From Candidatus Heimdallarchaeota archaeon (GTDB taxonomy: Archaea; Asgardarchaeota; Heimdallarchaeia; Heimdallarchaeales; Heimdallarchaeaceae): a stretch of DNA of 43,524 nucleotides. The notes under the pieces were generated by a model. The model made no database searches, was not told the DNA's origin, and saw only the letters and a list, made by a program, of their open reading frames with translations. Positions 2 through 13,129 of this stretch are shown here, one piece after another; the first letter of the stretch is position 1; each line of letters starts with the position of its first letter. Both the position numbers and the translations under genes were made by a program. Where the stretch lies: NCBI GenBank assembly GCA_016840095.1, contig JAEOSZ010000047.1, positions 1 to 43,524 on the forward strand. Direction: 5' to 3'.

Positions 2-430
2 GTACCTTTCATTAGTAAAGGCAGAGTTGTTTATTCCTATAGTTTTGTTGAAGATGTTATTGAAACTTTGATAAAAATGGAAGAAAGCGACAAATCAAAT
101 GGGGAAATTTTCAATCATAATAGTTATCTGATTGAAAGAAGAGAACTGTTTGAAACAGCTGCAAAAATATGTAAAGTAGAACTAAAGACTTTCAATCTCA
201 ATTATAGTATAGCAATGATAATTGGTTTCTTTGGAGAATTACAATGGAAACTTCTCAAGAAAAGACCTTTGTTAGATAGATATCGAGTAAAACAAATGGG
301 TAAGCCAAGAATGTTAAGCAATAAGAAAATAGAAGAATTATTAGAAATTACTCCAAAAAAATCGTTCGAAGAAGCATTAAGAGAGACCTATTCCTGGTAT
401 TTGAAAAACAAAAGAGAACAAGAAAGATGA
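2..430 (+). CDS. NAD-dependent epimerase/dehydratase (extended SDR), C-terminal part; 5'-truncated by window edge
   Basis: Frame is open from base 2 (VPFISKGRVVYSYSFVEDVIETL...GEIFN...LSNKKIEELL..TPKKSFEEALRETYSWY), matching the typical C-terminal pattern of extended SDRs. Confidence 0.75.
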   Translation, partial: VPFISKGRVVYSYSFVEDVIETLIKMEESDKSNGEIFNHNSYLIERRELFETAAKICKVELKTFNLNYSIAMIIGFFGELQWKLLKKRPLLDRYRVKQMGKPRMLSNKKIEELLEITPKKSFEEALRETYSWYLKNKREQER

Positions 431-1314: not shown

Positions 1315-1770
1315 TTGTCGAAAGTAATCATGCTTAATCTCGAGAAACAAGAAACAAAACAGCCAAAATTTCTTTCATTATTTGATTTTGAATATCAGGA
1401 GTTAGTAAATGTAGGGTTAGATCTAATTCAAGAAGGAGAAATAGATTCAGCAATACTGTTTTTTCAAGAGCTTTCACTCTCTTCACCACATTCTTCTCTC
1501 TCCTATTTCTATCTTGGAAATTTACATTCAATAAAAGATGATCTTGACATTGCAGTGGGGTATTATTCTCTTGCATATGAAGTCAATGACAATCCACTTC
1601 TAACAGCCAAATTGCCTTGTAAAGTTCTTTCAACATTGGTTTCCATGAATACTATGGATAAAGAATTGCTCTCTCTATGGTTGGAAAGAACAAGTGAATT
1701 TCATGATATATATTCCTGTGATGAGCTTCTCATTTGTGATTATGCTCAAAGAATAATTTCATTAAAATAA
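1315..1770 (+). CDS. Tetratricopeptide-repeat protein
   Basis: TPR-like helices (GLDLIQEGEIDSAILFF; SYFYLGNLHSIKDDLDIAVGYYSLA). True start may be the ATG at 1330. Confidence 0.6.
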   Translation: MSKVIMLNLEKQETKQPKFLSLFDFEYQELVNVGLDLIQEGEIDSAILFFQELSLSSPHSSLSYFYLGNLHSIKDDLDIAVGYYSLAYEVNDNPLLTAKLPCKVLSTLVSMNTMDKELLSLWLERTSEFHDIYSCDELLICDYAQRIISLK

Positions 1771-1818
1771 TGTATGAAAAAAACAGCTTATTCGTATTTT
1801 ACTCTATAGTTAATACTA

Positions 1819-3066
1819 TCATGTTTTTGCTTCTTCTTCTGTTTCGTATGTTATCTCACAAATTCTGTGTTTGCTTTTTAGAAGCGAAACTGGAACTTTA
1901 CTTGAATCTCTTATCCATTTTTCACAGGAATTGCAAATTACATCATTTGGATATCTCCAGTAATTGCAGACAACTAGAAATTTTACTTCTTCTTCAGTTT
2001 CTTGAATAAAATGATCTGAAATGAATGGAGCCTTATTGAAAAGCTGAATCAACCTTATCATGGGATCGAAATCATAGTAGAATTGTTCGCCAATATCATC
2101 TTTGATGAAATCCATAGTTTTTTGTCTATCCTCAATTGCCATTTCTCTAATAGTTTGATCCTCTCTATACGACGTAATTTCTCTATTTGAACCTCCCGGA
2201 GCTATTTGGAAGATGCAATCCTTTACGTAACTATATTCTGAAGCGCATCTCATCTCATCACAGATAATAGGTTCATCTAGAATCTTACTGAAAACTGCTT
2301 CCAACATTCCTTCAACAAAAGCGCAAGTCTTTGTAGCAATTACACCCAATGATTCTGTCCAAATTGAGCTATCTAGAGAAACTGTTGCTACTTTTTCTTC
2401 AGGGTCAAAATGAAGAATATTGATGTTTCCCCATCTGGAAATGATTGGAGATTTAACCAAGGCATCCAAATAGGTTCTTAGATTCTCAAATTCCCCTTCA
2501 TAGATTTGAGTCATAACTTGTCTTCCAGCTTCATAACCTATCTTTCCAAGAATTTGAGAAGTGGCATCCTTTGCACCCTCGAATTGTCCATAAAATAATT
2601 CTTGAAAGATATTTATTGCGTTCTCTCTTAAAGAGTTTAAACATGTTTCGACTTCAGGAAAATCATCTAGAACTGGATTAGAATAAGTTATTATAATGAA
2701 CATCTCAGAAAGCATCAACAGCTTACTAATTGTTTTCGACATCTCCTCCTCAAGAGATGAGATAGTAAGATATTCTGTTATAGTGGGATCAAAAATAACA
2801 AATGAAATCATAAATTGTTCAACCCCTCCTCGTGCCATAGGATTTGGAATAGAGAAAAACATACTAGAATATACAACATTTGCCATTGCATTGACTATTG
2901 CTTTCATTTCTTGAAGGAAATTGAAATCCATTAATCTAGTCAATGAGGCTGTAATTCTTGGATCTTGTATCTCAGCTACATTGAATAGTAGTCTGGGACC
3001 CAACCTCTGATCAAAATGAAATAACATCACATTGATCCTGTTTCTCAAATCTACTCTTTCAGTCAT
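1819..3066 (-). CDS. uDENN/longin (folliculin/SMCR8-like) - V4R domain fusion protein with Cys-rich C-terminal domain
   Basis: N-terminal MLFHFDQRLGP and FSIPNPMARGGVEQFMISF motifs. Central V4R pattern LGKIGYEAG...WG...C(AFVEG)...E.RC...C.F. Confidence 0.7.
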   Translation of the reverse strand: MTERVDLRNRINVMLFHFDQRLGPRLLFNVAEIQDPRITASLTRLMDFNFLQEMKAIVNAMANVVYSSMFFSIPNPMARGGVEQFMISFVIFDPTITEYLTISSLEEEMSKTISKLLMLSEMFIIITYSNPVLDDFPEVETCLNSLRENAINIFQELFYGQFEGAKDATSQILGKIGYEAGRQVMTQIYEGEFENLRTYLDALVKSPIISRWGNINILHFDPEEKVATVSLDSSIWTESLGVIATKTCAFVEGMLEAVFSKILDEPIICDEMRCASEYSYVKDCIFQIAPGGSNREITSYREDQTIREMAIEDRQKTMDFIKDDIGEQFYYDFDPMIRLIQLFNKAPFISDHFIQETEEEVKFLVVCNYWRYPNDVICNSCEKWIRDSSKVPVSLLKSKHRICEITYETEEEAKT

Positions 3067-4123
3067 CTGTTATCATCTTTTTTGAGGCATAAATATATGC
3101 TAAACTAAACGAGGGATTTATTTCAGCAGTTTTGATTATATCTGATGCTTTACTTATATCCTTGTATTCATTCTTCTCCATAAGATATTGGTAAAGTATG
3201 TTGGATCCAATACCTGTGATTATTATTTTATCTAGTTGATATTCTTCCATTTTTTTCTTTATGAGTCTGTTTATCTTTTCTAGCATTCTTACTTTAAGTA
3301 AATATGCTATTTTGATTAAATCTTGCTCATGAAAACAATCATCAACAATACAGAACATGCTTTTTATCCTGTTTAAAGCATCTTCTTTGAATTTAGCCTT
3401 TTTATCAGGAGTATTAGTAATATAGTCTGATGGTTGAATATCTTCAGTTACAAGAAAAACATCAGCTGTAATAGCATGGGTTTCAAATGGAAGATTATAT
3501 GTCTCTCCGTTGTATTCAAAGTTAGGTTGAATGAAAGCTGCATTTGTTTCCATTAATCCGTAGAAAATTAGCTCATCATTCTTCATCCTTTCATGATCTG
3601 ATTTTGAATTTGAGAGAATCTCTCCCTCTCGAATAGGAATAAAACTAGTAGTTCTTGTTGAAAAATCAACTACTAAACCTTCATGTTTTGTCATTTTCCA
3701 TAAGCCTTTACCCAATGCTTTCCAACCTACAGAAACAACTTGTGATGGGTTTTCTAATGCTTGTTTAATTGTAACAAATTCACCATCATGTGTATAGAGA
3801 ACTATATTTGCAGGATGTATGAAATTTGTAACAGAGTTGATGATAAATTCTATTGTTTCTTTTGCAGATGCAAAGAGAGGACTGGTTGTAGTCAAAATAA
3901 ATTTGCGAATATTGTAATCAGCATAAGATCGTAAAATAGTCTTTAGTTCTCCTTCAAGTTCTTGTCTTCTAGTTCTTAAGGGTAGGTAAATCCTTTGAGA
4001 ATGAAACGGTTCTTCTGGATGAGAAGGATCAACTATAACTATCTTAAGAGATGTAACTCCAAAATCCAGTACTGCGATATTTTTTTTGTTTACATTAAAG
4101 CTAGTTGTTTGGTTAGTTGCCAT
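3059..4123 (-). CDS. Hydantoinase/oxoprolinase-family ASKHA protein (MfnF / H4MPT-linked C1-pathway-like), motif-degenerate
   Basis: Ordered motifs DFGVTSLK, YLPL, VVDFSTRTTSFIPI, D.ERM...EL.F.G, E..AITADV, TPD, ITGIGS. Overlaps the next gene by 8 bp (ATGACTGA). Confidence 0.75.
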   Translation of the reverse strand: MATNQTTSFNVNKKNIAVLDFGVTSLKIVIVDPSHPEEPFHSQRIYLPLRTRRQELEGELKTILRSYADYNIRKFILTTTSPLFASAKETIEFIINSVTNFIHPANIVLYTHDGEFVTIKQALENPSQVVSVGWKALGKGLWKMTKHEGLVVDFSTRTTSFIPIREGEILSNSKSDHERMKNDELIFYGLMETNAAFIQPNFEYNGETYNLPFETHAITADVFLVTEDIQPSDYITNTPDKKAKFKEDALNRIKSMFCIVDDCFHEQDLIKIAYLLKVRMLEKINRLIKKKMEEYQLDKIIITGIGSNILYQYLMEKNEYKDISKASDIIKTAEINPSFSLAYIYASKKMITDD

Positions 4124-4170
4124 CTATTTACAATCTATGATTTTCATTAATAAAAGCTAGGTTATTCTTC

Positions 4171-4827
4171 TCAACGTCTTTTCCTAAATCCAGCCCCTTC
4201 TGGCTCTTCATCAAAATCCTCTAACTTCTTGAGTTTCTTTGATTTAGCTAGTTCCTTTTCTTTCTTAGCTAACTCTGGAAATTCTTCCATTATGTTGGTA
4301 GTAAATTTTGCTTTTGGATGCATATGTCTTATATAAAGACAAATTTCTGATAAATCTTCATTAGAAATAAATTCACCGAAGAAGAACTCTTTTCCATCCC
4401 TGAGCTGGACTACTAGCATAGCTTTATTTTTGTACTTTTTCCACATATCTAAAGATAATTTTCTTGGAATTCTAGAGAGTCCATATCTTCTTAGTTCTTT
4501 GATTCGTATGGTCCCTTTCTTCGTTGCATATCCTGTCATCAGAAGAGGTGTTGAGCGATAGTGGATTTCAGTACCTTCAATCTTGATGAAATCCTTTGTA
4601 TAGGTTAATTCTCTATATGTTCTATTGCCAAAAATCAGAACAGGAAGTAAAGTTACTGCTGCAACTATCAAAGTTGTAGTTAAATCTATATCTTCATCTG
4701 GAGAGAGGAACACAAAAACTACAAAACTAGTTATCATAACCATACTGAAAAGAAGATTAAGAATAAAGTCCTTCCAACCAAATCTGGTTGCATTCTTAAC
4801 TAGAGTTACATCGTTTTCTTCACTCAT
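4171..4827 (-). CDS. Membrane protein, 2 TM helices plus PH-like beta domain and charged tail
   Basis: Two hydrophobic segments followed by beta-rich region (FIKIEGTEIHYR...IRIKEL...MLVVQLRDGKEFFF) and a terminal helix, as in bacterial-type PH domains. Confidence 0.55.
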   Translation of the reverse strand: MSEENDVTLVKNATRFGWKDFILNLLFSMVMITSFVVFVFLSPDEDIDLTTTLIVAAVTLLPVLIFGNRTYRELTYTKDFIKIEGTEIHYRSTPLLMTGYATKKGTIRIKELRRYGLSRIPRKLSLDMWKKYKNKAMLVVQLRDGKEFFFGEFISNEDLSEICLYIRHMHPKAKFTTNIMEEFPELAKKEKELAKSKKLKKLEDFDEEPEGAGFRKRR

Positions 4828-4833
4828 AATCTT

Positions 4834-5829
4834 CTACCTTTTTCTATATTTCTTAATGGTCTGGGATATAACTTCAATATTTTCATCAGATGCAGTTATT
4901 GGAATTACACATCCTGGTGCAATAACTAATCTATTGTTGTTCTCTTCTGATTTTCTTAGCGATTCAAGAATATTCTTCCTGATATCATCAGGTTTTCCAT
5001 CAACTAATGTTTGTGTTTCATCAATACCGGCAAGCAATCCCTTAGGAAAAATACTTGCAGCTTCATCGATTTCAGGCCATGTTAATTGATCATGCCAATT
5101 CAAAGCATCAACGTCCATTAACTCTGCTGCTTCTTTAAAACGGATATCTTGACCATGAACATGCATTACAATGAATTCAGTTTTTCCTTTAATTTTTGAA
5201 ATAAGTTTCTTAAGAAATGGGATTTCAAATTTGAGAACCTCTTCCCAAGGTAATTCAGTTTTTCTGAAATGCTGGGATGCAAGAAAAAGACCATCAGCAC
5301 CTGCATCTATAGATGATTTTGCAAATTCAATGATATCATTTGTAATAGTAAAAAGAGATTCTCTGATTAACTCTGGCTTTTTACTTATATTAGAAACTAA
5401 ATTGGTATCCATTTTTGAAGCTACCATGAGAGGGGAAAACAAAGTCATCATTTTTGGTAGGCTTTCAAGTTCTTTACTAATTCGTTCAATAGCTTTCAGC
5501 TGCTTTCCTAATTCTCCTTCTCCAGAATCCACTGATTCAACAGTTTCCCAGTCATCTACTGAGGTTATACAACACTTATCACATCTTGTGCTTCCAGTAA
5601 TCGGGTCATAGTCACTTGCTACGATACATCCATAGTCAACAACAGGAAATCTACCATGAGGAGAAATTTTCATTAAATCGAATTCATGTTTTTTGTAGAA
5701 GTCTACGTGAATTTCAGCTAATGCATAAGGATCTCTGTCTATATCTGGGAAATGCTTCCATAAACTGAAAAGAGGTCTTTCTTCATTTTGACCCTTAAAC
5801 GTTTGGAGAAGGAGTTCAAGCTTGTCCAT
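4834..5829 (-). CDS. Uroporphyrinogen decarboxylase (URO-D/MtaA-like) family protein
   Basis: LWKHFP, FDLMKI, TLFSP, AGADGLFLA, MHVHG, LNW, GGID-like (AGID) and IAPGC motifs. Lacks the HemE RQAGR motif. Confidence 0.85.
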   Translation of the reverse strand: MDKLELLLQTFKGQNEERPLFSLWKHFPDIDRDPYALAEIHVDFYKKHEFDLMKISPHGRFPVVDYGCIVASDYDPITGSTRCDKCCITSVDDWETVESVDSGEGELGKQLKAIERISKELESLPKMMTLFSPLMVASKMDTNLVSNISKKPELIRESLFTITNDIIEFAKSSIDAGADGLFLASQHFRKTELPWEEVLKFEIPFLKKLISKIKGKTEFIVMHVHGQDIRFKEAAELMDVDALNWHDQLTWPEIDEAASIFPKGLLAGIDETQTLVDGKPDDIRKNILESLRKSEENNNRLVIAPGCVIPITASDENIEVISQTIKKYRKR

Positions 5830-5933
5830 AAAGGAACTTATATGAGATTATTATCAATATTGTGGTTTTTGATAACAAAAACCTTTCAATCGAATAACTT
5901 AAAAGTCAACACATAATCGCAAAAACGAGAGAA

Positions 5934-6236
5934 ATGTCTACACGTGAAAGGAAAGTAGTCAGAAAGAAGAAAAAGTTTGGTCTCGTAGTGGAATTTATTC
6001 CAACAGTACGTGATTTAAACCCTGATGAAGACACTAAGAAGAAAATTGATGCTGAGATTAAGAGAGCTAGGGGAATCACACCTGCTTACCTTGCTGATAA
6101 ATTCAATATCAGAGTAAGTACAGCAAAGAAATTTTTGCGTGAAGCTGAGGAAAATAAAATTGTTGAACAAGTTGTTTCTTCAAGAAGAACAAAGGTTTAT
6201 TCAGCAACCGCAGCTAAAGCTGCAGAAAGTAGTTAA
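5934..6236 (+). CDS. rps25e: Small-subunit ribosomal protein eS25
   Basis: Basic N-terminus plus winged helix ITPAYLADKFNIRVSTAKKFLRE...VY. Confidence 0.88.
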   Translation: MSTRERKVVRKKKKFGLVVEFIPTVRDLNPDEDTKKKIDAEIKRARGITPAYLADKFNIRVSTAKKFLREAEENKIVEQVVSSRRTKVYSATAAKAAESS

Positions 6237-6301
6237 AATCCCCCTTCTATTTTAGATCTCTTTTAATTGTCTGTTGCTCTTTTATCAATTCTATGGATAA
6301 A

Positions 6302-7249
6302 TCACGTGTAAAAATCGGATGAAAATGGTGCATCTGTAAGACCACTTTCAGTTACATAGAACAAAGCTTCTCTTTCAGGCATTCTAGAACTATCAAACAA
6401 TCTTGCTATTCGTGAACTTCCTCTTGATTTTCTCACGAAAATTCTTTGTTGAGGTCTGTGTGCCCATGCGAAACCTAGTGCTGGTTCTTCAGGACTTCCA
6501 AAAAGAAACTCTTCTACGTTTGCTATAATTTGGTTTGTTACAAGAACGGCTAGGTCATATTTAACCGCTAAAGCAACTAGTTCTTCAGCAATCTGCATAA
6601 TTTTTTGTTGTCTTTCAACTAACCGTTCCTTACCAATATATTCAGATCTGAAGTGAGATGCGAAGGAATCTACTATAAGTAATTTTACGTTTTTCTCTTG
6701 AATGGTTTCTGCTAAAGAATCTACTATACTAAAGAGATGATGTGTGTTCACAGCTGAACTTATGTATATATTCTCTAATATGCTTTCAACATCTAATCCT
6801 CTAGAGGTTGCCATTTCAATAATTCTCTTAGGAGAAAAGGTTCTTTCTGTATCAATGAAAAAGGCAGTGCCATCTAATCCTCCTTCATCGAAAGGAAGTT
6901 GAACATTGATGCATAATTGAAAACATAGTTGTGTTTTTCCTGAACCAAATCCACCAGCAACTTCTGTAAGTTCCTGTGTCCATATACCTCCTCCCAAAAT
7001 TCCGTCAAACTCTGTAGAGGAGGTTGTAATCTTTCCTCGCTTTCGTTCAGATTCTAGAAACTGCAAAGCTGTAACTGGTTGGATACCTAACTCATTCTGT
7101 GCAGCAGAAAGAAGTTTCTTTGCATCTTTCTCGCTTATCTTAATCATGTCAATTAATTCGGTAACTGTTGATACAGCGATATTTTCTAAAGTTAACTCTG
7201 ATTCCTCTATTTTTTGAAGAATTTCTTTATCAATCCCTTTGAGTTCCAT
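6302..7249 (-). CDS. radA: RadA/Rad51-family recombinase (probably a RadA paralog)
   Basis: N-terminal HhH-like domain, Walker A GGFGSGKT, IDTE, Walker B LLIVDS, HFRSEY, TNQ, RIARLFDS. Confidence 0.85.
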   Translation of the reverse strand: MELKGIDKEILQKIEESELTLENIAVSTVTELIDMIKISEKDAKKLLSAAQNELGIQPVTALQFLESERKRGKITTSSTEFDGILGGGIWTQELTEVAGGFGSGKTQLCFQLCINVQLPFDEGGLDGTAFFIDTERTFSPKRIIEMATSRGLDVESILENIYISSAVNTHHLFSIVDSLAETIQEKNVKLLIVDSFASHFRSEYIGKERLVERQQKIMQIAEELVALAVKYDLAVLVTNQIIANVEEFLFGSPEEPALGFAWAHRPQQRIFVRKSRGSSRIARLFDSSRMPEREALFYVTESGLTDAPFSSDFYT

Positions 7250-7427
7250 TTTCTACAAAGATACTATTTTGTTAAAGTTGTTAAGAATTTTGGTCAGAAG
7301 AACATTATTGAAATGTTTGAAAAAACCTAAGCTTTTTAAGCAAAGCTCAAGAGTTTCTAGTAGTTGATTCTGAGGAAAACCTCTCAATCAAGACATTATG
7401 TGTAAAAACCAGGAATGTTGATTAAAA

Positions 7428-8606
7428 ATGAAAGAAGTAGTACCTGAAGTATATTATGTTGGAGTAAATGATCATCTAACAAAGCTTTTTGAAGGACTCT
7501 GGCCTATCCCTGAAGGAGTTAGCTATAACAGTTATGTCGTTAAAAGTGAAAAGACTGCTTTGATTGATACAGTGAAGATTCCATTTGTAGATGAGTTTTT
7601 GAAGAAAGTGGAAGAAGTTACATCCTTTGAAATTGACTACATTATCTTAAATCACATTGAACCAGATCATAGTAGTTCTTTGTTGCGTCTATTAGAAAAG
7701 GTTCCAAATGCCACAATCATGTGCTCGAAAAAAGCTGAAGGGATGATTGAAAGTCTTTATGGAATTACAGAGAATATTCACGTAGTTGAAGAAGGAGAGA
7801 AACTAGATTTAGGTGGAAGAGAATTAACTTTTTACATGGATCCATTGGTTCACTGGCCTGAAACAATGGTTACCTATGATAACAAAGATGGAATTTTGTT
7901 CTCTTGTGATGCTTTTGGTTCTTACAAAGCTCTGGATTTTGGTTTGTTTGATGATGAATGTGATCCAGATATTTTCTACGAAGAAACAATCAGGTACTTC
8001 AGTAATATTGTTGCTAAATATGTTAAATATGTAAAGAAAGCGATGGAAAAACTTGGTGGGTTGGATATCAAAATTATTGCTCCAGCTCATGGTCTTATTT
8101 GGAGAGAAAATCCTCAAAGAATAATTGAATTATACATCCAACTTTCAGATAGAATGGCACTACCTGGTGTAACAATCATCTGGGGTTCAATGTATGGAAA
8201 TACAGCTAAAGTTGTTAACCAAGTGGTAGAAGGAGTCAAAGAAGCAGGTCTTCCTGCAAAAGTGCTAAACTTCTCAAATGATCATCTTAGTTATTTGATT
8301 AAAGAAACTTGGAAATACAAAGGTGTTATTTTAGGTTTTCCAACTTATGATGGTGGACCATTCCTGAATACTTCTTATTATTTACACTTGATAAAGAGAA
8401 AAGATCTCAAAGAACGAATAGTTGGCTTCTTTGGGTCATCTATGTGGAGTGGAAGAGCATTAAAACAGGCAGCTGACATAGTTCAAGAATTAGATTGGGA
8501 CGTCGTAGAGCCGTTATTAGAATGGAAAGGTTCTCCAACAGATGAAATTCTAGAACAAGCAAAGCAGCTAGGAAAAGCTGTTGCTGAAAGAGTAAAATCT
8601 TCATAG
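7428..8606 (+). CDS. fprA: Flavodiiron protein (FprA family A-type flavoprotein; O2/NO reductase)
   Basis: GVSYNSY, HIEPDH, HWPE, SCDAFG, PAHG di-iron motifs; flavodoxin domain SMYGNT. Confidence 0.95.
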   Translation: MKEVVPEVYYVGVNDHLTKLFEGLWPIPEGVSYNSYVVKSEKTALIDTVKIPFVDEFLKKVEEVTSFEIDYIILNHIEPDHSSSLLRLLEKVPNATIMCSKKAEGMIESLYGITENIHVVEEGEKLDLGGRELTFYMDPLVHWPETMVTYDNKDGILFSCDAFGSYKALDFGLFDDECDPDIFYEETIRYFSNIVAKYVKYVKKAMEKLGGLDIKIIAPAHGLIWRENPQRIIELYIQLSDRMALPGVTIIWGSMYGNTAKVVNQVVEGVKEAGLPAKVLNFSNDHLSYLIKETWKYKGVILGFPTYDGGPFLNTSYYLHLIKRKDLKERIVGFFGSSMWSGRALKQAADIVQELDWDVVEPLLEWKGSPTDEILEQAKQLGKAVAERVKSS

Positions 8607-8613
8607 TTATACC

Positions 8614-8636
8614 TCTTTCCTTTTTTCTTATTTTTG
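8614..8636 (+). terminator. Putative oligo-T archaeal terminator of fprA
   Basis: Pyrimidine/T-tract (ctttccttttttcttatttttg) directly after the stop codon. Confidence 0.45.
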
Positions 8637-8743
8637 CATTACAGTAAATTCTCTAATTCTGTCCTTAAAACTGGTTTTAGCTGAAAATTAGTGTTTAGGA
8701 AAAACATTTTTAAAGAATTTAAGAAAAATACTATTGGGGGCAA

Positions 8744-8956
8744 ATGTCGTATACTCCACTTAAAAGAAAGAATGAAGGTGTGCCACTCACAACTGAAGTA
8801 GTTGACATCATAGTTGATGGTATGAATGACAAAAACAAAGAAGTGAGAGAAGCAGCTTATTCCACTTGGGTAGCTATCGTAGAGCTAGAATCTGATAAAG
8901 TAACTGATGATATGCTACAAAGAATTACCAGTGCTCTAAAAACTTATAGAGTATAG
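8744..8956 (+). CDS. Small HEAT-repeat-like protein (possible fragment)
   Basis: IVDGMNDKNKEVREAA fits the HEAT consensus (L.D....VR.AA). Confidence 0.5.
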   Translation: MSYTPLKRKNEGVPLTTEVVDIIVDGMNDKNKEVREAAYSTWVAIVELESDKVTDDMLQRITSALKTYRV

Positions 8957-8979
8957 TTTGAAGTCTTCTTTTCTATATG

Positions 8980-12148: not shown

Positions 12149-13129
12149 TTGTTGGGGTCAAAAGAAAGTAATGAATGGGTATCATCAAGCAGAGATTTAT
12201 CTGTCTCAATTGCAGGTTTAGATGGAGTCGGAAAAACTGCTATTGTTAACAAGCTTTTGAGTGATGAAATTACAGAAACCTATTCAACATATGGTATAAA
12301 TCAAGAGATTGTTAAAATCAATGGATTGAATCTTGGTTTAACTGATCTAGGTGGGAAAGAACCCTTTAGAAATTCTTTATGGGAAAGTTATATTTCTCGT
12401 TCAGATGCTTTGATTTATGTTGTTGATGCAACTAAAGAAGACAAGCTAGATGAGTCACAACAATGGTTTGTTCGTGCTCTTAAGTGGATTAAGGACGAAT
12501 CCCCCGTTTTAGTTTTAATCAACACATGGGATCAACCTGTTAATGAAGAAGTAATCAAGTCCATTAATAGTATTTTCCAGAGTCCAAAAAATGGACATCC
12601 TATTGAATTTATCTCTATCTCCCCTTTATCTGGTAAAAACATCCATAAAACAGTAGACTGGTTAGCAAATACAATCATTACTAATCTGATAAGTGCAGGA
12701 ATTACTGTTGATTACTTTGTTGCTTATATTAAAACAGAACAAGGCTTGGTAGAAGCTCGAATAAGAACAGCTGATGACAAAGTTCTAGATAAAGGATTGT
12801 TTCCTGTAATTAGATATAAGTTCGCTTCCAGCACTGAATCTATTCTCGAATACATGAGGATTGGAGGAAGACAAATTGTTACAGCTGCAGATAGTCAAAC
12901 CTCATGCTGGTTAGTTACAACCAAAAATGATGAGTTCAAAGGAACTAATCTATTGATGAAATTATTAACTGAATTCATCAAGGAGATCCATGGATTAAGG
13001 GCTCAGAAAGGAACTGACTTATCAGAATCAGATTTAACCAGCTATCTTGTAAAATATATGATTGACAATCAGACATTCTGGTCAGAAACCCAACAACCTA
13101 TGTTTGAAATATCCTTCATTAACGAGTGA
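12149..13129 (+). CDS. Arf/Sar-family small GTPase fused to a C-terminal longin-like domain
   Basis: G1 GLDGVGKT, G2 STYGIN, G3 DLGGK followed by FR..W..Y, IYVVDA, variant G4 NTWD, G5 SPLSG. C-terminal ~140 aa has a beta-beta-alpha-beta-beta-beta-alpha-alpha hydrophobic pattern. TTG start. Confidence 0.85.
   Translation: MLGSKESNEWVSSSRDLSVSIAGLDGVGKTAIVNKLLSDEITETYSTYGINQEIVKINGLNLGLTDLGGKEPFRNSLWESYISRSDALIYVVDATKEDKLDESQQWFVRALKWIKDESPVLVLINTWDQPVNEEVIKSINSIFQSPKNGHPIEFISISPLSGKNIHKTVDWLANTIITNLISAGITVDYFVAYIKTEQGLVEARIRTADDKVLDKGLFPVIRYKFASSTESILEYMRIGGRQIVTAADSQTSCWLVTTKNDEFKGTNLLMKLLTEFIKEIHGLRAQKGTDLSESDLTSYLVKYMIDNQTFWSETQQPMFEISFINE

Follow-up and report, generated by a model that had tools for sequence, protein, structure and literature searches.

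The protein P0001, encoded in a 43,524-nucleotide stretch of DNA from a Candidatus Heimdallarchaeota archaeon (referred to here as the window), is derived from MfnF/TIGR03123, and the altered motifs that set it apart from this family are genuine: they recur across its clade and are no accident of a single sequence. What is an MfnF-like protein doing in the Heimdallarchaeaceae, a family that has lost the methanofuran/H4MPT pathway? The explanation that we favour, with a probability of about 0.5, is that P0001 is a small-molecule-binding subunit which has lost the MfnF reaction and is made together with, and partners, the longin-V4R protein P0002. Its ancestor was the methanofuran enzyme MfnF, which stayed in the genome after the pathway had gone; as the rewired copy is kept beside a longin/V4R gene, the enzyme fold appears to have been given a new, putative job. 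The features on which this reading is built are collected in Table 1.

Table 1. Genes, motifs and intergenic elements of the block around P0001 (canonical motif in brackets).
Feature	Residues	Position in window	Strand	Basis or remark
P0002, longin (FLCN/Lst4-like) + V4R (PoxR/MopR-like) + Cys-rich C-terminal protein, 415 aa		1819..3066	minus	
ATGACTGA, MfnF-like stop overlapping longin-V4R start		3059..3066	minus	sequence
P0001, MfnF-like ASKHA (Hydantoinase_A) protein, 354 aa		3059..4123	minus	divergent Heimdallarchaeaceae-specific subfamily
ITGIGSNIL, adenosine-type G-x-G motif, retained		3194..3220	minus	G304 and G306 in 22/22 clade members
TPDK (T-[PA]-D-G)	238-241		minus	motif check
GLMET (G-x-x-R-T)	189-193	3545..3559	minus	R192 to Glu in 22/22 clade members
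DFSTRTTS, phosphate-2 hairpin (D-x-G-S-T-T-T-D)	153-160	3644..3667	minus	model strands 149-154 and 159-165
SVGW ([AS]-x-N-W)	131-134	3722..3733	minus	site comparison
TTTSPLF (T-[AG]-E-x-D)	78-84	3872..3892	minus	acidic pair E80/D82 missing in 22/22 clade members
DFGVTSLK, phosphate-1 hairpin (D-[IV]-G-G-A-N-x-K)	20-27	4043..4066	minus	between model strands 15-21 and 25-31
Spacer of 47 nt with conserved TATA-like CTTTTATTAAT, ~25 nt upstream of the MfnF-like start		4124..4170	minus	sequence conservation
P0003, 2-TM protein, 218 aa		4171..4827	minus	conserved position in block
P0004, URO-D/MtaA-like protein, 331 aa		4834..5829	minus	

The reading frame of P0001 is uninterrupted and its stop overlaps the start of the next gene, as the earlier note had described. 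The protein matches Pfam Hydantoinase_A (PF01968) with an E-value of 4.8e-11 and 42.9 bits, above the gathering cut-off of 22.9, and reaches 177.1 bits with TIGR03123 (one_C_unchar_1; Orf9/MfnF-type) and 161.6 bits with the NCBIfam equivalog for MfnF, NF040623 (161.3 bits in the whole-genome search), in both cases under the curated cut-offs of 244.1 and 520. Against TIGR03123 the canonical copies from Heimdallarchaeia reach 319.5 and 330.3 bits. The three-dimensional fold of the family is found in the AF2 model (pLDDT 92.1, pTM 0.90), whose best Foldseek match in the PDB is 3cet_B (E 1.2e-24, TM 0.77/0.82); against 3cet/3c0b the TM values are 0.77-0.86 over the full length, with a sequence-level E-value of 2.6e-32. 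The next matches are other ASKHA kinases (5f7q, 1z05 and 4wq5, E ~1e-8). The ASKHA two-domain fold is complete, with the phosphate-1, phosphate-2 and adenosine elements in the expected order (hairpins at residues 15-31 and 149-165, G-x-G at 304-306).

How much of the MfnF active site is left? The roles given here to MfnF residues are those general to ASKHA proteins. At 42 family-invariant positions, those conserved in at least 85% of 123 canonical proteins, we set the residues of 22 clade members against the canonical ones. In the clade 21 positions are kept (including R179, E184, E214, D221, D240 and R252) and 21 are changed: some 13 now vary at background level and eight are re-fixed (N133G, G155S, S156T, T157R, D160S, Y187F, R192E and F216H). 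Sites at background entropy include the phosphate-1 loop, E80, D82, G90, W50, R255 and D260. The DFGVTSLK hairpin retains D20 and G22 with G23, A24 and N25 substituted, and positions 23, 24 and 27 vary inside the clade, G23 being replaced by V, I or L. The phosphate-2 hairpin carries four of the re-fixed residues (G155S, S156T, T157R and D160S), and in SVGW N133 is Gly in 21/22 members while W134 is retained. N133, G155 and R192, each present in 123/123 canonical proteins, have all been replaced in the clade, and D160 is lost in 22/22 members, like E80 and D82. The glycine-rich DxGG/DxGxT loops and the acidic metal ligands of active ASKHA phosphotransferases are missing. Among the new residues E192 is found in 22/22 members, R157 in 20/22 and H216 in ~82%; as a guess, R157 and E192 could contact each other in P0001.

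These results support the earlier proposal of an MfnF/TIGR03123 origin with loss of family-invariant phosphate-loop and acidic residues. The six motifs that it quoted are all in place, and the usual forms that it gave essentially agree with the 123 canonical members, except that TMTxELxD is slightly off (T-M-T-[AG]-E-x-D was found). It had named the occurrence of the same substitutions in active family members as evidence against its reading; none of the main residue switches is present in the 123 canonical members compared, so the reading stands on this point. Its word "degenerate" is only half right, as it describes the lost and relaxed sites but not the eight altered sites, including R157, E192 and H216, at which a different residue has become conserved. 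Because these sites are re-fixed, the pattern is as compatible with a new ligand or catalytic site as with a dead one.

The subfamily is sharply delimited. In a search of 1.84 billion representatives the scores fall from 285-499 bits to at most 138 bits, a gap which marks the clade, and among 400 Asgard genomes clade-level matches are confined to the Heimdallarchaeaceae. The gene is single-copy and present in 30 of the 31 genomes of the family, the single miss being a contig break; the longin-V4R protein is present in all 31. Purifying selection acts on the MfnF-like gene (dN/dS 0.02-0.27), and on P0001 it is comparable with that on the neighbour genes. The clade is monophyletic; its stem measures 1.31 substitutions per site (median branch 0.34), and since the midpoint root falls on this stem, the FastTree tree does not fix its attachment point. 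An AU test does not reject grouping with the canonical copies of a sister Heimdallarchaeia family (p-AU 0.86), a result compatible with vertical descent from a Heimdallarchaeial copy without proving it.

That sister family has a canonical MfnD-MfnF-MfnE operon, and Ftr in 12/12 genomes, as against 0/31 in the Heimdallarchaeaceae. MfnB, Mch and MfnE are present in the sister family and absent from the four Heimdallarchaeaceae genomes checked (the window's own, which is 89% complete, two closed ones and one more). The earlier note had suggested looking for a canonical mfnF elsewhere: a search across the window's own genome found no second, canonical copy, and the partner genes MfnB/MfnD/MfnE and the methanofuran-using enzyme Ftr are missing as well. 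P0001 has preserved the ASKHA/MfnF fold in full, with half of the residues that are invariant in the family. What it has lost would be the donor-side apparatus (both glycine-rich phosphate loops, the Glu/Asp pair, N133 and R192). With this apparatus gone, we propose that it no longer condenses F1-diphosphate with gamma-glutamyltyramine; judged from the residues, the ancestral chemistry is very probably lost. Part of the cleft would then have been rebuilt with the conserved Arg157, Glu192, His216 and Gly133.

Why would P0001 work with the longin-V4R protein? The order URO-D-like, 2TM, MfnF-like, longin-V4R is kept in every locus spanning the genes, in five genera, and the MfnF-like gene always lies just upstream of the longin-V4R gene, so the adjacency on which the earlier note relied is conserved. 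The two genes overlap (-8, -1 or -14 nt) in 24/27 orthologous loci. The spacer upstream of the pair is possibly its promoter, to judge by its TATA-like element. The reading of the neighbour is supported: its N-terminal longin domain matches FLCN, Lst4 and NPRL2 (Z 9.8-10.5), with FLCN and Lst4 among the best hits, and is followed by a PoxR/MopR-type V4R domain, whose nearest relatives are phenol-binding sensor domains. The longin domain has both the GP motif and the arginine known from FLCN/SMCR8-type longins of Heimdall archaea, and this arginine has been considered as a potential GAP finger in Heimdallarchaeia (PMC12290439). An Arf-like GTPase-longin protein is encoded nearby (12149-13129). 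We infer loss of catalysis, binding of a ligand and a physical or functional partnership. P0001 would now be a small-molecule-binding subunit produced together with the protein encoded directly downstream, acting as its ligand-sensing or scaffolding partner or handling the ligand of its V4R domain. The pseudoenzyme sensor of a GTPase regulator put forward in the earlier note is plausible, but the chance that P0001 has a new enzyme activity is almost as high.

In the latter case P0001 would be a neofunctionalised enzyme with another donor or acceptor and no Mg-diphosphate leaving group, forming a small metabolic module with the URO-D/MtaA-like protein whose product or substrate is the V4R ligand. 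We regard this as somewhat less likely than the favoured reading. Three of the eight re-fixed sites are polar or charged (R157, E192 and H216), and the retained invariant residues and the strength of purifying selection suit an enzyme. At the positions of the MtaA motif H-x-C ... C, P0004 has an invariant H223-x-H225 ... C307. This motif aligns with the Zn site of MtaA, and the metal site of P0004 is apparently intact. The likeness of the V4R domain to phenol-binding sensors also fits, the canonical MfnF acceptor being a phenol (PMC8141765). However, a cleft that was still a tuned active site throughout would not be expected to show background-level variation at the relaxed sites. We can put forward neither a candidate substrate nor a pathway, and the block has no other biosynthetic genes.

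It is unlikely that P0001 plays an unrelated structural or enzymatic role and that the genes are neighbours by inheritance alone, their order being kept in a young family in which synteny has not decayed. All linkage and synteny evidence does come from one taxonomic family, the S25e-RadA side of the neighbourhood is syntenic as well in the genera that we number 2 and 4, and genera 4 and 5 have spacers of 147 nt and 35 nt instead of an overlap. Moreover, the one sister-family genome with a longin-V4R homologue has it among ESCRT genes, with no MfnF-like gene. However, in the closed genus-5 genome both flanks have changed and the four-gene block alone survives, and the downstream flank is not kept in the other three genera that we looked at. 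Identity between the proteins is down to 39-47%, yet order, orientation and mostly the overlap are retained, and the MfnF-like and longin-V4R genes share the same narrow distribution. Last, P0001 as a still-working MfnF (a methanofuran or methylofuran core synthase of unusual sequence) is rejected and close to refuted: the full-length match to 3c0b/3cet and the half of the invariant residues kept would allow it, but the 162 bits against a cut-off of 520, the replacement of N133, G155 and R192 and the absence of the pathway (Ftr in 0/31 genomes; MfnB, Mch and MfnE in 0/4 checked, two of them closed) speak strongly against it.

The favoured reading of P0001 as a binding subunit can be set beside known systems. 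The closest is MfnF itself (M. jannaschii MJ0840), with bacterial Orf9, TIGR03123 ("probable H4MPT-linked C1 transfer pathway protein") and the structures 3C0B/3CET (M. maripaludis Q6M145). P0001 shares with it the full-length fold, the motif order and 21/42 family-invariant residues, but lacks the glycine loops, E80/D82, N133, D160 and R192; its genomes lack MfnB/D/E, Ftr and Mch, and its operon partners are the URO-D-like, 2TM and longin-V4R genes instead of MfnD/MfnE. The ROK repressors Mlc/NagC/Lmo0178 and TsaB/YeaZ are non-catalytic and use an ASKHA kinase-type fold to sense ligands or to serve as partner subunits; such proteins are the next structural neighbours of P0001 after MfnF. Unlike these, P0001 has no DNA-binding domain, its putative partner is a longin-V4R protein and the sequence kinship is at superfamily level only. 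SAMTOR, CASTOR1 and Sestrin2, enzyme-fold metabolite sensors acting upstream of the eukaryotic longin GAP complexes (GATOR1; FLCN-FNIP), offer an analogy only, that of an enzyme-derived fold beside a longin protein: P0001 is not homologous to them, and the eukaryotic sensors act on multi-subunit complexes.

In a bolder version, sensing a metabolite (perhaps a phenolic or tyramine-like one) would be the dedicated task of P0001. By binding to the longin-V4R protein, it would control a folliculin-type GAP activity whose target is an Asgard Arf- or Rag-like GTPase. We give it little chance, but if true, the sensor-GAP pair would represent an archaeal precursor to the enzyme-derived sensors that control longin GAP complexes in eukaryotes. 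Several observations weigh against the favoured reading of P0001 as a binding subunit: R157, E192, H216 and the retained invariant residues would suit a new catalytic site equally; P0004, with its apparently intact metal site, hints at a metabolic module; the sole sister-family longin-V4R homologue does without an MfnF-like gene; and the synteny comes from one family, with a wider neighbourhood that is partly syntenic in genera 2 and 4.

P0001 is a clear-cut natural example of an enzyme that outlived its pathway and was kept under selection, its active site part dismantled and part rebuilt. What makes it more than a curiosity is its neighbour P0002, in which a longin domain of folliculin type and a ligand-binding V4R domain are combined. 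Should P0001 and P0002 cooperate, they would form a tractable two-protein system for studying how small-molecule signals came to act, before eukaryotes, on GTPase regulators of the longin type; otherwise P0001 is still a well-defined new subfamily. The annotations "hydantoinase/oxoprolinase family" and "H4MPT-linked C1 transfer pathway protein" mislead metabolic reconstructions of Heimdallarchaeaceae. In a literature search on Heimdallarchaeia with hydantoinase we found no paper that brings the two together, and none on the rewired MfnF-like protein. As for the two upstream genes, P0004 as a single sequence has no match in the PDB, and a 4-sequence profile finds MtaA weakly (E 0.007); the cytoplasmic domain of P0003 is possibly bacterial-PH-like, from a weak structure-atlas match.

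All the motifs that the earlier note had quoted for P0001, the MfnF-like ASKHA protein, are found at their coordinates on translation of the window, and the consensus motifs it gave proved essentially correct against the canonical alignment. P0001 falls into the Pfam family Hydantoinase_A (E 4.8e-11), with NCBIfam scores of 177 bits for TIGR03123 and 162 bits for the MfnF model, under the respective cut-offs of 244 and 520. Its sole solved sequence relative is M. maripaludis Q6M145 (3c0b/3cet; E 2.6e-32). Confidence is high (pLDDT 92.1, pTM 0.90) for the AlphaFold2 model, which was built from an alignment of 52 sequences and agrees along its whole length with 3cet/3c0b (TM 0.77-0.86, E 1e-24); the next matches, at E about 1e-8, are other ASKHA proteins, including ROK kinases and repressors and TsaD/YeaZ. 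The quoted motifs sit at the expected ASKHA element positions in the model, and the fold is MfnF-derived.

Coordinates of the four-gene block, of sequence and structural elements of P0001 and of related longin ORFs
Feature	Position	Strand	Remark
URO-D/MtaA-like gene (P0004)	4834-5829	minus	
2-TM protein gene	4171-4827	minus	
Spacer, 2-TM to MfnF-like	4124-4170	minus	orthologous spacers in loci L004-L026
MfnF-like ORF (P0001)	3059-4123	minus	intact frame, 354 aa
Longin-V4R gene (P0002)	1819-3066	minus	
Motifs in P0001	DFGVTSLK 20-27; TTTSPLF 78-84; SVGW 131-134; DFSTRTTS 153-160; GLMET 189-193; TPDK 238-241		residue positions
Phosphate-1 hairpin, P0001	strands 15-21 and 25-31		AlphaFold2 model
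Phosphate-2 hairpin, P0001	strands 149-154 and 159-165		AlphaFold2 model
G-x-G, P0001	ahead of helix 307-317		AlphaFold2 model
f4 longin-only ORFs	G042:C208:2419-2709; G043:C108:20708-21004		also in G044, G046

How much of the MfnF active site is left? P0001 belongs to a divergent clade, of which 22 members were aligned with 116 family representatives and seven canonical copies from other Heimdallarchaeia; 42 positions are at least 85% conserved in the canonical family. The clade keeps 21 of the 42, among them D20, G22, T78, W134, R179, E184, G189, T193, E214, D221, T238, D240, R252, G304 and G306. Eight are re-fixed as other conserved residues (N133G in 21/22 members, T157R in 20/22, R192E in 22/22, and G155S, S156T, D160S, Y187F and F216H), and about 13 are relaxed: G23, A24, K27, W50, E80, D82, G90, T158, D176, L180, R255 and D260, with D153, where D and E alternate in the clade, counted here as well. 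N133, G155 and R192 are present in 123/123 canonical sequences, none of which has the clade's Gly133 or Glu192. Mean entropy, computed on 13 non-redundant clade members, is 0.48 bits at kept sites and 1.21 bits at changed sites vs a background of 1.46 (p about 0.06), so the changed sites are of mixed kind. Variation in the phosphate-1 loop and the Glu/Asp pair is now that of any drifting position, and new constraint has come in at the phosphate-2 loop and at positions 133, 187, 192 and 216. The description 'motif-degenerate' thus holds for the former part of the site, which has decayed, and fails for the latter, which has been rebuilt. T157R and R192E could pair in an internal salt bridge filling the old diphosphate site. 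The glycine loops and acidic residues of ASKHA proteins hold phosphate and metal. The positions lost from P0001 belong to these elements and include invariant residues of every canonical member. Because these phosphate- and metal-holding positions are lost and the donor substrate of MfnF is a diphosphate (PMC8141765), the ancestral ether-forming reaction is very probably gone.

Where is the clade found, and how did it arise? In 1.84 billion representatives, searched exhaustively with HMMER, there are 1089 relatives, with a sharp gap between five full-length clade representatives (285-499 bits) and all others (at most 138 bits); named clade members are exclusively Heimdallarchaeaceae or Heimdallarchaeota MAGs. 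Among 400 Asgard genomes, clade-level matches (E at most 1e-74, at least 39% identity) are confined to Heimdallarchaeaceae, the remaining matches being canonical-level (E 1e-34 or weaker, 22-30% identity). Apart from two, the genomes compared are all incomplete MAGs. A single copy of the gene is present in each of 30 of the 31 Heimdallarchaeaceae genomes, covering all five genera; in the other, the longin-V4R gene begins 29 nt from a contig end, so the missing gene reflects a break in the assembly. The clade forms a monophyletic group, whose stem measures 1.31 substitutions per site vs a median branch of 0.34. Close orthologues have dN/dS of 0.02-0.27, similar to the three neighbouring genes, and the gene is retained under purifying selection. 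The methanofuran pathway is absent from its carriers. A search of the window's genome for a canonical mfnF, or any second MfnF/TIGR03123 gene, found none. Ftr, the enzyme using formyl-methanofuran, is found in 0/31 Heimdallarchaeaceae genomes, two closed single-contig genomes among these, and in 12/12 genomes of f7, a Heimdallarchaeia family with canonical MfnF. MfnB, Mch and MfnE, found in f7, are missing from four Heimdallarchaeaceae genomes: the window's own (89% complete), the two closed ones and one further genome. The f7 homologue scores 319.5 bits, over the TIGR03123 cut-off, and is flanked by MfnD-like ATP-grasp and MfnE-like kinase genes; pterin-biosynthesis genes (PTPS, MptE-like) adjoin its operon. 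Grouping the clade with the f7 copies was not rejected (AU test, p-AU 0.86), and the constrained tree beat a quick free search by 25 log-likelihood units. The simplest history, favoured though not proven, is vertical: the pathway was lost in the Heimdallarchaeaceae stem and this gene was kept and rapidly remodelled. One genome of the sister family f3, in which Ftr was not found, encodes a TIGR03123 protein of canonical type (330 bits; L037, G033:C287, 2171-3142) on a 3.4-kb contig, adjoining AAA-ATPase and MBL-fold genes; it may be a further orphan copy or a contaminant (estimated contamination 6%).

What, then, does P0001 do? We favour, at a probability of roughly one half, a ligand-binding or scaffolding subunit that would not catalyse the MfnF reaction and would work as partner of the longin-V4R protein. 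The order URO-D/MtaA-like, 2-TM, MfnF-like, longin-V4R is constant at every locus spanning the genes in five genera, and the MfnF-like/longin-V4R adjacency that the earlier note had proposed as a coupling is stable within one family. The stop/start overlap (ATGACTGA at 3059-3066) was confirmed; overlaps of 8, 1 or 14 nt occur at 24 of 27 loci (genera 1 and 2), and spacers of 147 and 35 nt in genera 4 and 5. The spacer ahead of the MfnF-like gene holds its length (45-48 nt) throughout genus 1, with the remainder of its sequence diverging; since a TATA-like CTTTTATTAAT is conserved in it, some 25 nt before the start, the two genes may form their own transcription unit in this AT-rich genome, with an internal promoter and a short-leader transcript. 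A weaker but serious possibility is that P0001 has a new enzyme activity and forms a small metabolic module together with the URO-D-like protein. P0004 aligns weakly to MtaA (4ay7) and has an invariant H223-x-H225...C307, conserved in four genera, opposite the MtaA zinc motif H-x-C...C; the site looks like a His-for-Cys variant and, given this alignment, P0004 may still be a metal-dependent enzyme. That P0001 and the longin-V4R gene are only an inherited neighbourhood is rather unlikely. The S25e-RadA side is also kept in genera 2 and 4; the downstream flank is kept in none of three other genera examined, and in the closed genus-5 genome the four genes alone are syntenic, both flanks being unlike the window's. 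A still functional MfnF, given the lost phosphate and metal positions, is hardly credible. The cytoplasmic domain of the 2-TM protein has bacterial PH-like domains (PH_40, bPH_7; score 0.92-0.93) as nearest named language-model neighbours, a weak lead.

A search of the Heimdallarchaeia-hydantoinase literature found no published work on this MfnF-like protein. The clade is a new, well-defined variant within a known family rather than a system of a new kind, and how far its interest reaches depends wholly on the putative partnership with the longin-V4R protein. P0002 is encoded in 31/31 Heimdallarchaeaceae genomes and, in the large protein database, shares with P0001 its restriction to this family. 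In its model (mean pLDDT 72), residues 160-295 resemble the phenol-sensing V4R domains of PoxR, MopR and DmpR (Z 12.4-13.3), and residues 10-160 longin domains, namely a Lokiarchaeal longin (Z 10.7), FLCN (Z 10.4-10.5), Lst4 (Z 10.3) and NPRL2 (Z 9.8). Its invariant G23-P24 and R79-G80-G81 are the counterparts of a GP motif and an arginine described in Heimdallarchaeial FLCN/SMCR8-type longins (PMC12290439); a longin-TRAPPC3/V4R fusion in Heimdall is already in print (PMC10933270). One genome of the sister family f2 (85% complete) has a 27%-identical homologue of the same architecture (L041, G031:C167, 5971-7257) among ESCRT-like genes (Vps28-like, UEV/E2-like and EAP30/Vps36-like; 1552-8969). 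A weak ATC_hydrolase-like gene precedes it in place of the MfnF-like gene, which was found neither nearby nor elsewhere in that genome. Stand-alone ORFs of 175-213 aa in f4 match P0002 only over its N-terminal longin residues 7-107 (E 1e-6 to 6e-9). The window also encodes, some 6 kb from the block (12149-13129, plus strand), an Arf-like GTPase that carries a C-terminal extension; in genus 2 it again lies near the block, at about 4 kb (L044 1738-2667), with thermosome, RadA and S25e between. By proximity only, it is a candidate client of the longin-V4R protein.
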